Shown here piece after piece: positions 25,101-28,100 of a stretch of DNA of 34,135 bases (position 1 is the first letter of the stretch; every line of letters starts with the position of its first letter). Position numbers: made by a program. Where the stretch lies: contig PIYJ01000003.1 of NCBI GenBank assembly GCA_003601725.1, forward strand, positions 1 to 34,135, read 5' to 3'. The stretch is from Candidatus Bathyarchaeota archaeon. Lineage in GTDB: Archaea > Thermoproteota > Bathyarchaeia > Bathyarchaeales > DTEX01.

Positions 25101-28100
25101 AGTTAAACGTAAATACGGCTCTAAAGTTGAGGTTGACGTATCAAGACCGGAAGCTGTCTTCATCTTTGCCTCAAACATGGAGGGGAAACCTGTCGGAGAA
25201 ATCATCGCGGAATTCAATCTTGAGACGAGAAGCCAATACTTCAACAGATCCAAAAGAGTTAGAGCCGACGCTTTGGAAAAGCAGCCTCACCTATAAACAA
25301 GAAACTCATATGTCAAAAAGGTATATCTAGAGAGAGGCATTATGATAATGGGGAGTTGTGTCATATAGAAGAGCTGAAGACGGAAGAGAAAGTAACTTTT
25401 GGAAGGAATCTGAGAAGACTGAAGATCTTCCAGCTCCACCAATCTGAATAGATCCCTTTTAAATGCCCAATAAAAGATGTGAGTATTGCTGAGTCAAATC
25501 AAGAAGCCGGCGTTTCGCCTTGGCAGTATAAACCTTGCACTTGAGGTGCCGCCATTTTACGTCGATTTCAAGAAGAGAAACTTCGGCTCTATAATGGCGA
25601 GGCGAGACCTTCCCAAGGGAAGGTTTGGTTATCCACATATATGTGACAAGACAGAGACATGTTGAAAATCTTTTGCTCCTAAAAAAGTTGCATCCTGACA
25701 TAAGCGTACCGGAAGAGCTGAGGGACTCAGCGGCAGCAATTGAGGCGCTTGAACCGAGAGAGTTTGAAGGGTTCATGAAAACAGTAAACATCGAAGAATC
25801 TGTAAGGGTCATTCAGATTATGGAGGAGGAATGGACATATATTGGAAGCCGGGTTTGGCTGAAAAGGATCGATTCATTCACTCTTTTTATATGCTTTTAA
25901 TCATGAAAGAAAGCAGATGGACCGTAAGACCAGCTATTTCAAAAGAGAAAGTGAAGGGATACGGGTTTGAAGTGCCCGTGGACACGGTGTTAAGCGAGGT
26001 CTTCCTGAAGCATCTAAGGAAAGGTGAACTTGAAGAGATCCACGATCACGCTGAGAATAAGCATTTTCACCTAACTATGGACAGCTTGAAGCGCTGCGTT
26101 GAGCTGGCTGGAGAATAGGATTACTATTTTTCGACGAGGACAAAGTGGAGACGGACTGTTTTTCTCTCTGCCAAGTAGGTTCCTTTTTAGGGTTTTTCTC
26201 TTCTTATCTATTTTAGGCTTTTTATGACATATACGAGTTCATTTGCGGTTTCTAATTTCCAAAAATCCCAATGTTTCTGCGGCATTCGTTGAAAAAACGA
26301 TTCATAATACCCCCGCATTCCTTTATCCTTTCCGCCGAGAGACTTAACGGGGAAAGAAACAACCTTGTAGTCAGCCTTCACCGTGTTAAGAAGCCTTATG
26401 CCCGCTCCCTTTTCGATCTGCTCAAGCACAGGAATCGTATTAAGTATAAAAGCCAAGTTGACCTTTACCTGAGGCGGATTCTGCATGATGTCCCTCGCCT
26501 CAGCGTGTCCCTCAACGCCAGCGAGGCTCATGAAGCCTTTGAGGAACTCCATGAGGTCCTCGTAAATATCGAATGCATAGTATCTTGTAGAGCTAGAACG
26601 CATCCAAGGGATCGCAAGCGGATGAAACCCGCATGCAACATCTGCTATGGAGCGGATAGGCGGCAGCTTAGAAAAGAGAGCGTTGTAAAATTCGTCGATG
26701 TTTTTAAGTCGCATATTTGTTGAATGATGATGCTTCATTATTTCGATGCATACTTTACGGAATGTTTCTGGGCATCCAGTCTTCTTCGCATCTCTCAGCT
26801 TCCTCATCCATTCCTCATATTTAGGTCTCGTTAGGAAATATGCTCCAGCTATCTGGTGGAGCTTTTTCCTCGTGGCTTTAATCGCCTTTTTTAGGCTTCC
26901 CGTTTTCTGGAGTTCTCGGCTTCCAAGGTTTCTTATGATCTCGATGCATACATGCCGATATTTGGGGCTTGACCGTATCTGTGCCGTGAGCTCTTCGAGA
27001 GGCTCGAGGCTGCTCATCATTCATCCGTCTTTGTTTGTCTTTAATTCCTCGATTAAACGTATTACAAACCGTAAGTTATGAATTGAGGCTAAACGAAAGT
27101 ATAATGGATCCTTCATTTTGAAAAGGTGATGCAAGTAGCCAAGCGAGTAATTCTGACATGTGAAACAATCGCAGCCCTGAGAGATCGGCGCTTTATTCCT
27201 CATGTGCCTCTCGTCTTGAATGTAAATGTATTTGCATGTTTCCTTCCCAGGCTTCGATGCGTAAAGCCTACCTTGCCTTGCATCTCTAGTAGGCAGAGAA
27301 CTATCGAAGAGCTCGTAGCCGAGCTCAATGCATTTGATAATGTTCCTTGGATGACCAACCCCAAGCGCAATCATCGGAAACTCCGAGGGAACCAGTCTAC
27401 GCGTGTATCTCAGCATATCGACAAGCAGATTTCCCTCGCCGTCAAGAGGGTACCCACCATAGCAAAAGCCATCGAACCCTATTTCTAAGAGAGCCTCGGC
27501 GCATTCACGGCGAAGATCATGGATTCCTCCCCCCTGAATCACCGCAAATAATAGGGGCTTACGTTTTTCTGAAGCATACTTATGGGTTACTATCCTGTCA
27601 AATTCCCGTCTGCATCTTTCCGCCCAGCTGATAGTCCTCTCAACGGAGAATCTTTGAGCATCCATGGGGTCTTCAACATGAGTACAAATGTCTAGGCATA
27701 TGGCTACATCCGCGTCGTATTTCAGCTGGAGCTGGATGCTCTTCTCCGGCGTTAAGAGAATCTTACGTCCTGAATCTCTTAGACGGAAGAGTATTCCCTT
27801 GTTCGTTATCTTGCCCAGATTTGAGTCTTGTCTAATCAATGAATATGCTTGGAATCCACCTGAATCCGTTATGATCGGACGCTGCCATCTGGAAAATGAA
27901 TGCAGCCCACCGAAGGCTTGCAGAACCGATGAGCCTGGATGCTGCATGAGATGAAAGACGTTCATCACCAAGGCTTGAACGCCGCATCGGTTAAGGTCTT
28001 CAGAGTCTAAGGAACGAACGAAACCAAAAGTGGCGTCCGGCATAAAGACTGGAAATCTCAAGCGGCCGTGTGGAACATCTAGGAACCCCTTCTGCATCAC

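Follow-up and report, generated by a model that had tools for sequence, protein, structure and literature searches.

A stretch of 34,135 nucleotides from a Candidatus Bathyarchaeota archaeon (assembly GCA_003601725.1, contig PIYJ01000003.1; the whole stretch is referred to as the window) was analysed with respect to a gene for a bacterial-type tRNA-guanine transglycosylase (TGT) on its minus strand. The enzyme is a member of an uncharacterised clade of variant TGTs that is coupled, in a strongly conserved and so far unreported manner, to genes for Rmt-type methyltransferases. Bathyarchaeia most likely acquired its gene from bacteria, and it now stands in one operon with that of a QueT importer. 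With moderate confidence we read the clade TGT in Bathyarchaeia as a tRNA G34 transglycosylase that inserts preQ1, or a close relative of it, salvaged through QueT, the adjacent Rmt acting separately on G1405 of the small-subunit ribosomal RNA (rRNA).

The open reading frame at positions 27021 to 28100, proposed in the initial annotation, was recovered on the minus strand and encodes 359 amino acids from a GTG at position 28100. An ATG at 28097 is the likely true start and would give a protein of 358 amino acids, as in the metagenomic protein P0001 (99% identical). The protein matched the Pfam TGT family (PF01702, E = 8e-96) and narrowly passed the NCBIfam equivalog for bacterial tRNA guanosine(34) transglycosylase (TIGR00430, 323.0 bits at a cutoff of 306.75), while its score against the ArcTGT model (TIGR00432, 87.7 bits) was far under the cutoff of 350. 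Among solved structures bacterial TGTs were the nearest (E-values of 1e-68 to 1e-62), followed by QTRT1 (~1e-51) and, at a distance, ArcTGT (1IQ8, 1.5e-5). Identity to characterised tRNA TGTs was 33–38% over the full length, without an extra domain or large insertion. An AlphaFold2 model of the protein had a predicted local distance difference test score of 85.4 and a predicted template modelling (TM) score of 0.85, and its top Foldseek match was the Z. mobilis TGT-RNA intermediate (1Q2R_A, TM 0.86). The chain ends directly after the zinc subdomain and lacks the C1, C2 and PUA domains of ArcTGT. By these sequence criteria the window TGT is classed as bacterial-type and not as ArcTGT, and the earlier description of a queuosine-type TGT without C-terminal or PUA domains in an archaeon stands.

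The surroundings of the gene are archaeal. Genes for topoisomerase VI A and B, an ATP-dependent DNA ligase, an Lhr helicase, RIO1 and KH proteins lie on the same contig on both sides of the TGT gene, and the gene downstream of it is 98% identical to a protein labelled 'Candidatus Bathyarchaeota archaeon' by NCBI. The GC content was uniform along the contig, with that of the operon equal to that of the host. PADLOC, run with its Dpd and CBASS (cyclic oligonucleotide-based antiphage signalling system) defence models, returned no match on the window genes. Membership of the window genes in a defence system was rejected on this account, and the neighbours of the TGT, QueT and an rRNA methyltransferase, also do not match the dpd surroundings expected of a DpdA.

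In order to evaluate the active site, 82 clade TGTs were aligned by MAFFT with three canonical TGTs (E. coli-type, T. maritima and Z. mobilis); positions are given in Z. mobilis numbering. Every motif listed in the initial annotation was found in the window TGT. Its D79 (in IITDSGGFQ) corresponds to Asp102, D137 and C139 (in CLDIC) to Asp156 and Cys158, Q189 (in VIQGG) to Gln203, G216 to Gly230, and D266 (in LFDSSLPTR) to Asp280, and the zinc site C310/C312/C315 and H341 corresponds to Cys318, Cys320, Cys323 and His349. FMPDAT and GGYPLDGE (residues 215–222) were likewise present. D266, D79, D137, Q189 and G216 were invariant in all 82 clade TGTs, and each of the four zinc ligands was kept in 80–82 of them. 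Across the alignment Asp102, Ser103, Phe106, Gln107, Asp156, Cys158, Gln203, Gly229/230 and Asp280 were retained along with the zinc ligands, as were the RNA-contact residues Arg286 and Arg289. With the catalytic, guanine-face and zinc residues all kept, the chemistry is probably intact, as had been proposed.

The part of the pocket that faces the 7-substituent of the base was altered throughout the clade. Leu231 is replaced by tryptophan (77 of 82) or tyrosine (5), Ala232 by proline, a residue that has no backbone NH (82 of 82), Val233 by leucine (81) and Gly234 by aspartate (81), while position 235 is variable. Val45 is aspartate and Met260 is leucine in every member, Tyr258 is histidine in 79 and isoleucine in 3, Lys264 is histidine, and Val282 is alanine or serine. 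In the window TGT, Y217-P218-L219-D220 occupy positions 231–234, G221 occupies position 235, D22 stands in place of Val45, which bears out the FMPVGT to FMPDAT change noted before, I244 corresponds to Tyr258 and L246 to Met260. The pocket thereby gains two carboxylates, at positions 45 and 234. Neither the window TGT nor the clade has the canonical preQ1 pocket (Leu231/Ala232 with Val233 and Glu235), and the window motif GGYPLD also departs from the enlarged queuine-type pocket GG[LS][AS]G, in which Val233 is replaced by glycine. Positions 231 and 258 covary. Among 99 close homologs tryptophan was paired with histidine in 77 of 77 and tyrosine with isoleucine or leucine in 21 of 22, the window and other archaeal TGTs being a Y231/I258 sub-variant and the bacterial ones W231/H258.

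Two details of the earlier description of the pocket were not sustained. A loop one residue longer than in bacterial TGTs depended on a gap that arose only when phmmer paired the protein with the Z. mobilis enzyme and is an alignment artefact, the region being ungapped against the E. coli-type and T. maritima structures and in the 82-member alignment. The G-E of the window protein had also been equated with Gly234/Glu235. The ungapped alignment places the aspartate at 234, and the two residues that follow GG[W/Y]PLD vary in the clade (GE, KQ, SE, NK, SK and others). The claim of an altered 7-substituent pocket itself was upheld, in that the Leu231/Ala232/Val233/Glu235 set is replaced, but the alteration is not peculiar to this archaeon and is the hallmark of a mostly bacterial clade.

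The Leu231/Ala232 peptide is flippable in the Z. mobilis enzyme: it presents its NH to bound guanine and its carbonyl to bound preQ1, and Glu235 holds whichever of the two groups faces backward (PMC3660597). Furthermore, the pocket motif of TGTs tracks the base, GGLAVG being associated with preQ1 and GG[LS][AS]G with queuine (PMC11570991). As position 232 of the clade offers no NH, the switch cannot work as in Z. mobilis, and the lost conservation of Glu235 fits with this. We infer that the invariant Pro232 would lock the peptide such that only the carbonyl is offered, which is the preQ1-type orientation.

Database searching retrieved more than 100 proteins with 58–69% identity to the window TGT, a much closer relation than the 33–38% to characterised TGTs. 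All of them have GG[W/Y]PLD, and those that are named belong to Chloroflexota and, in a few cases, to other bacterial groups. When species-representative genomes were scanned, relatives numbered at least 580, mostly in Chloroflexota, and the neighbourhood counts given below refer to the best 80 of more than 600 loci. The best 80 come from two Bathyarchaeia, Anaerolineae, Caldilineae, Ktedonobacteria, Thermoflexia, Herpetosiphonaceae, Ardenticatenia, one Armatimonadota and one Poribacteria. Among 50%-identity cluster representatives the PDAT and GGWP signature was still present at ~35–40% identity, and the clade is broad on this account. In the sequences compared, GG[W/Y]-P-L-D together with FxPDAT is the mark of a large uncharacterised clade centred on Chloroflexota.

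An FmrO homolog was located directly downstream of the TGT in 75 of the 80 loci. Two of the five remaining loci were cut by contig ends, which leaves 75 of 78 informative loci and three true exceptions (L060, L067 and L081), in which the pocket is kept without an adjacent Rmt. Enzymes that modify helix 44 of the small-subunit rRNA were recurrent in the neighbourhood: RsmI (Cm1402; TIGR00096 passed) and RsmF (m5C1407) in 26 loci each, and RsmE (m3U1498) in 10. A second, divergent Rmt paralog was found in 27 loci of Anaerolineae and related bacteria (including L005:7101-8722), and the queuosine-precursor transporter YhhQ (TIGR00697 passed) in 12 bacterial loci. With the TGT-adjacent enzyme termed RmtA and the paralog RmtB, the typical order in Anaerolineae was TGT-RmtA-RmtB-RsmF-RsmE-YhhQ-RsmI. 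Fusions were also observed, each on one contig only. P0243 (L084:8001-9887) joins TGT and FmrO in 628 amino acids with RsmI upstream, and P0251 (L085:633-2765) joins RsmI and TGT in 710 amino acids with FmrO downstream. A TetR-family regulator gene, of a kind typical of inducible resistance operons, lies ahead of the P0251 operon. In an Acidobacteria metagenome-assembled genome (GCA_018269055.1, L083:1-14832) the order TGT-FmrO-RsmI-FmrO is flanked by transposase genes. The cluster adjoining it encodes DegT and class-III aminotransferases, a GT2 glycosyltransferase, two GFO/IDH oxidoreductases and a radical-SAM/SPASM enzyme; this aminosugar/aminocyclitol-like block could represent a self-resistance arrangement or ordinary glycan genes. 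Literature searches found no paper linking FmrO or Rmt with TGT and none linking queuosine with Bathyarchaeota, and the TGT-Rmt pairing appears to be undescribed.

The Rmt gene of the window (26208–27020, minus strand) encodes an S-adenosylmethionine (SAM)-dependent methyltransferase of the Rmt/FmrO family (PF07091, E = 6e-54, 183.6 bits) and belongs to the RmtA clade. Against NF000466, the model for Rmt G1405-N7 methyltransferases, it scored 216 bits, under the cutoff of 250 that the T. hazakensis ortholog passes (254.9), and its best match in the PDB was Sgm (3LCU, E = 2e-40). The residues critical in RmtC are kept (K20, R50, H54, Y60, K236, K(R)241 and M245), and the TGT-adjacent RmtA clade as a whole keeps H54 and M245 (73 of 73 each), Y60, R/K241, K/R20 and K/R50. 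RmtA was sister to the producer enzyme Sgm in a neighbour-joining tree. The window enzyme has the same full two-domain architecture and SAM motif as the m7G1405 enzymes RmtC and Sgm, and is predicted from these features to make m7G1405 in 16S rRNA. It differs from the resistance enzymes of this type in being chromosomal and tied to a TGT, rather than carried by a resistance plasmid or forming part of an antibiotic gene cluster. RmtB, the copy beside RsmF, lacks Met245 and part of the loop that is critical for function, and its target or role probably differs from m7G1405. Chloroflexota homologs of Rmt have been mentioned once, as 'uncharacterized' (bioRxiv 712810). An FmrO-type enzyme acting as a preQ1 N-methyltransferase in the manner of phage DpdM was considered and rejected, since DpdM is a DUF3109 protein and not FmrO (PMC10516641); retention of the G1405-specific loop by the RmtA clade likewise disfavours it.

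In the window the pair is preceded by queT (28097–28606, minus strand), which encodes a membrane protein of the QueT family (PF06177, 123.5 bits, cutoff 33.7) that is predicted to take up queuosine precursors or 7-deazaguanine bases. The TGA of queT overlaps the ATG of the TGT gene by 1 nt (TGATG) and the ATG of rmt abuts the TGA of the TGT gene with no spacer, an arrangement that marks queT-tgt-rmt, from its sequence, as a translationally coupled three-gene operon. The 5' intergenic region (28607–28765, minus strand) contains TTTTATT at ~28637–28631, ~28 nt ahead of the TTG start of queT, and is likely to hold the operon promoter. Between queT and topoVI-A lies an open reading frame of 65 amino acids (28766–28963, minus strand) for a predicted small hydrophobic protein without a Pfam match. 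No Rfam riboswitch was detected in the window or in 12 bacterial loci, nor in the queT leader with the threshold relaxed to E<=1, and control by a preQ1 riboswitch was rejected on this basis.

The order QueT-TGT-FmrO was also found in the archaeal loci L003, L008, L171 and L172. Of these L003 is on a complete Bathyarchaeota chromosome, and the contig of L171/L172 carries aIF2, L44e, S27e and Nop10. At least four Bathyarchaeia lineages have the triad, at protein identities of 61–87% and with differing flanks. What the window has in common with L003 and L008 is limited to the three-gene block, such that one common archaeal insertion site is not supported. QueT was linked in all archaeal loci, bacterial loci having YhhQ or no linked transporter, and relatives of QueT in a single-protein scan were confined to Bathyarchaeia; QueT appears to be an archaeal addition to the tgt-rmt pair. 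A second QueT, 61% identical to that of the window, was found away from TGT-Rmt in Candidatus Bathyarchaeia archaeon OBJ_0618 (JBGOYH010000013.1, L167:209-4495). It is divergent to genes for a SMODS cyclase, a QueC-like protein, an OGG-type glycosylase and a weakly TGT-like protein (PF01702, E = 1.6e-6), which is the gene set of type IV CBASS, and has a type I restriction-modification system on its other side. This QueT may supply deazaguanine to the adjoining CBASS-type system.

The origin of the pair was investigated with neighbour-joining trees of TGT and RmtA that carry no support values. In these the archaeal TGTs and the archaeal RmtAs were each monophyletic and both were placed beside the same Anaerolineales locus (L025), the RmtAs nested among bacteria and the TGTs basal to the sampled bacteria. 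The shared placement beside L025 indicates that the two genes moved together, most likely by transfer of the tgt-rmt pair from bacteria to archaea.

As to the reaction, two loci (L004 and L035) have queA (TIGR00113, 431 bits), the product of which acts on preQ1-tRNA, directly upstream of a clade TGT with the GGWPLD/PDAT pocket. QueA is widespread in Chloroflexota, and none of 74 Chloroflexota QueA loci had a canonical TGT within 5 kb, whereas a canonical GGL[AS]VGE TGT followed queA in 5 of 6 QueA loci outside of this phylum. Assembly JBPCJY01 has both QueA and a clade TGT. A motif search for QueC, QueD, QueE and QueF in the 80 loci found none, QueA being the sole find. The full-length alignment to tRNA TGTs, the queA linkage and the survey of QueA loci together suggest that the clade TGT is the TGT of the queuosine pathway in Chloroflexota and accepts preQ1.

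Under the favoured reading, Bathyarchaeia would have taken up tgt-rmt as one unit from bacteria, an Anaerolineae-like Chloroflexota being the likeliest donor. QueT would bring in a 7-deazaguanine for which the archaeon has no synthesis of its own, with preQ1 as the likeliest candidate. The TGT would follow the ordinary bacterial mechanism, with Asp266 (Asp280) as nucleophile and Asp79 (Asp102) as general acid/base, and would exchange G34 of GUN-anticodon tRNAs (Asp, Asn, His and Tyr) for the imported base. The guanine face would be read by Asp137, Gln189 and Gly216 in a pocket re-lined by Asp22 (position 45), Asp220 (position 234) and the co-varying 231/258 pair (W/H in bacteria, Y/I in archaea). 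Rmt would separately methylate N7 of G1405 in helix 44 of the archaeal small-subunit rRNA. We infer that the operon would in this manner adjust the decoding centre through both of its partners, the wobble position of the tRNA and the rRNA, with aminoglycoside tolerance or resistance as its probable outcome. Queuosine at position 34 affects decoding under aminoglycoside stress and has been linked to tolerance (PMC11703503), Arm/Rmt methylation interferes with RsmF and RsmI (PMC3923132), and the helix-44 methyltransferases are mutually dependent (bioRxiv 2026.07.05.736617).

Several observations weigh against this reading. The canonical residues specific for preQ1 are all replaced, and preQ1 is deduced from queA linkage in only 2 of the 80 loci. 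No queA, queG or queH was seen near the archaeal operons. The archaeal 231/258 pair (Y/I) and transporter family differ from the bacterial ones, so that the archaeal base could differ from the bacterial one. In addition, the near-obligate adjacency of Rmt and the fusions with Rmt and RsmI exceed what is expected of mere co-regulation.

Some of these observations would be accounted for if the tRNA G34 target were kept and a base other than preQ1, such as queuine, preQ0, the archaeosine base or an unknown derivative, were inserted in the archaeon and possibly in the whole clade. The inserted base would then be the end product, with no QueA, QueG or QueH acting downstream. We consider this possible but unlikely. 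Pocket motifs are known to track specificity (PMC11570991), and here every residue that reads the 7-substituent is replaced while two new aspartates line the site. The archaeal Y231/I258 pair, the presence of QueT instead of YhhQ and the absence of queA near every archaeal operon point in the same direction. Enzymes that use queuine, however, enlarge the pocket (Val233 to glycine), and the clade residues are bulkier (W/Y, P and L). A transporter for preQ0 would be needless, given that archaea normally synthesise preQ0 themselves. The idea of a different base, suggested in the initial annotation, is also weakened by the GGWPLD pocket of the clade TGTs behind queA in two bacterial loci and by the abundance of QueA in Chloroflexota with no canonical tgt beside it.

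That annotation also raised a different nucleic-acid target, for which the Rmt adjacency and the Rmt and RsmI fusions give circumstantial support, though too little for it to be preferred over tRNA. In its most explicit form TGT and Rmt would act on one nucleotide, G1405 of helix 44, and the TGT would be an rRNA-guanine transglycosylase. Methylation of N7 would make G1405 a cationic leaving group, which the TGT would swap for an imported 7-deazaguanine ('activate and exchange'). Such a scheme, improbable in our estimate, would explain why RmtA follows the TGT in 75 of 78 loci across Chloroflexota classes, Armatimonadota, Poribacteria, Acidobacteria and Bathyarchaeia, why the two are fused in P0243 and RsmI is fused to TGT in P0251, and why the clusters hold only helix-44 enzymes (RsmI for C1402, RmtA/RmtB for G1405, RsmF for C1407 and RsmE for U1498) besides TGT and YhhQ. 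The pair also behaves as a mobile unit, as seen in the transposase flanks of L083 and the co-transfer to archaea. A pocket with no NH donor at 232, an aromatic W/Y and new carboxylates would suit a cationic 7-substituted purine, and Pro232, Asp234 and Asp45 are invariant. Against this stand the full-length identity of 33–38% to tRNA TGTs with no extra domain, a score above the Tgt equivalog cutoff, the queA linkage in two loci, and the three loci that keep the pocket without an adjacent Rmt. G1405 is moreover base-paired, buried and in a CGU rather than a UGU context, and each fusion comes from a single contig. To our knowledge 7-deazaguanine has never been reported in rRNA, and a literature search for it found nothing. 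If true, the scheme would be the first case of a transglycosylase with ribosomal RNA as its substrate and of a 7-deazaguanine within the ribosome.

That the adjacency is without functional meaning and the archaeal copy a drifting, inactive or dispensable remnant of a transferred operon is very hard to credit: the gene is of foreign origin and the window Rmt falls slightly under its NCBIfam cutoff (216 against 250), but none of the three reading frames is disrupted and their start and stop codons are coupled, no catalytic residue has been lost, the GC content is that of the host, and the triad has persisted in at least four Bathyarchaeia lineages at 61–87% protein identity with different flanks.

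The relation of the enzyme to known systems can be summarised as follows. The clade shares with bacterial Tgt (Z. mobilis/E. coli type, EC 2.4.2.29) the fold, the length, the zinc subdomain, Asp102/Asp280, the guanine-face residues, Cys158, Arg286 and Arg289. It differs in the pocket (L231 to W/Y, A232 to P, V233 to L, G234 to D, V45 to D, Y258 to H/I, M260 to L and V282 to A/S), in being located with Rmt, RsmI and RsmF instead of queA-yajC-secDF and, in the case of the window TGT, in its occurrence in an archaeon. A dedicated precursor transporter and a motif departing from GGLAVGE are shared with the queuine-salvaging TGTs (QTRT1 and Chlamydia-type). In those enzymes small residues enlarge the pocket, whereas that of the clade is bulkier and contains a proline, there is no QTRT2-like partner, and the window TGT scores lower to QTRT1 than to bacterial TGT. 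ArcTGT and DpdA belong to the same TGT superfamily; the window TGT is set apart by its missing C-terminal/PUA domains and the absence of a PADLOC (Dpd) match. Laterally acquired bacterial-type Tgt has been described with QueA-QueH in DPANN and Methanosarcinales (Castelle et al. 2021, PMC8204110). There Tgt is co-located with QueA and QueH, in contrast to Bathyarchaeia, in which it is accompanied by QueT and Rmt with no QueA or QueH nearby.

Other features were noted in the vicinity of the operon. A GFO/IDH oxidoreductase and a CN-hydrolase of the nitrilase superfamily are encoded within a few kb of it on two different Bathyarchaeia contigs (window, 23399–25296, plus strand; L171:220-2896), and a link of this pair to the QueT-TGT-Rmt operon is not evident. 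The window also contains three sulfatase-family genes (PF00884 with SGSH_C) within 12 kb (4094–5506, plus strand; 5551–6999 and 14847–16361, minus strand), which suggests that this archaeon uses sulfated glycans.

The clade, which spans hundreds of species, fits neither GGLAVGE nor GG[LS][AS]G and is annotated as plain Tgt by current pipelines. The base that it inserts, once learned, would extend the specificity code of TGTs and would test proline as a replacement for the Leu231/Ala232-Glu235 switch. The results point to a functional connection, not recognised before, of queuosine-type base exchange with modification of the decoding centre in rRNA. The m7G1405 methyltransferase family underlies pan-aminoglycoside resistance, and the clade marks a large environmental reservoir of Rmt-like genes. 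On the favoured reading, Bathyarchaeia, a dominant sediment lineage, would carry both a queuosine-family tRNA base and a bacterial resistance-type rRNA mark, each acquired laterally.

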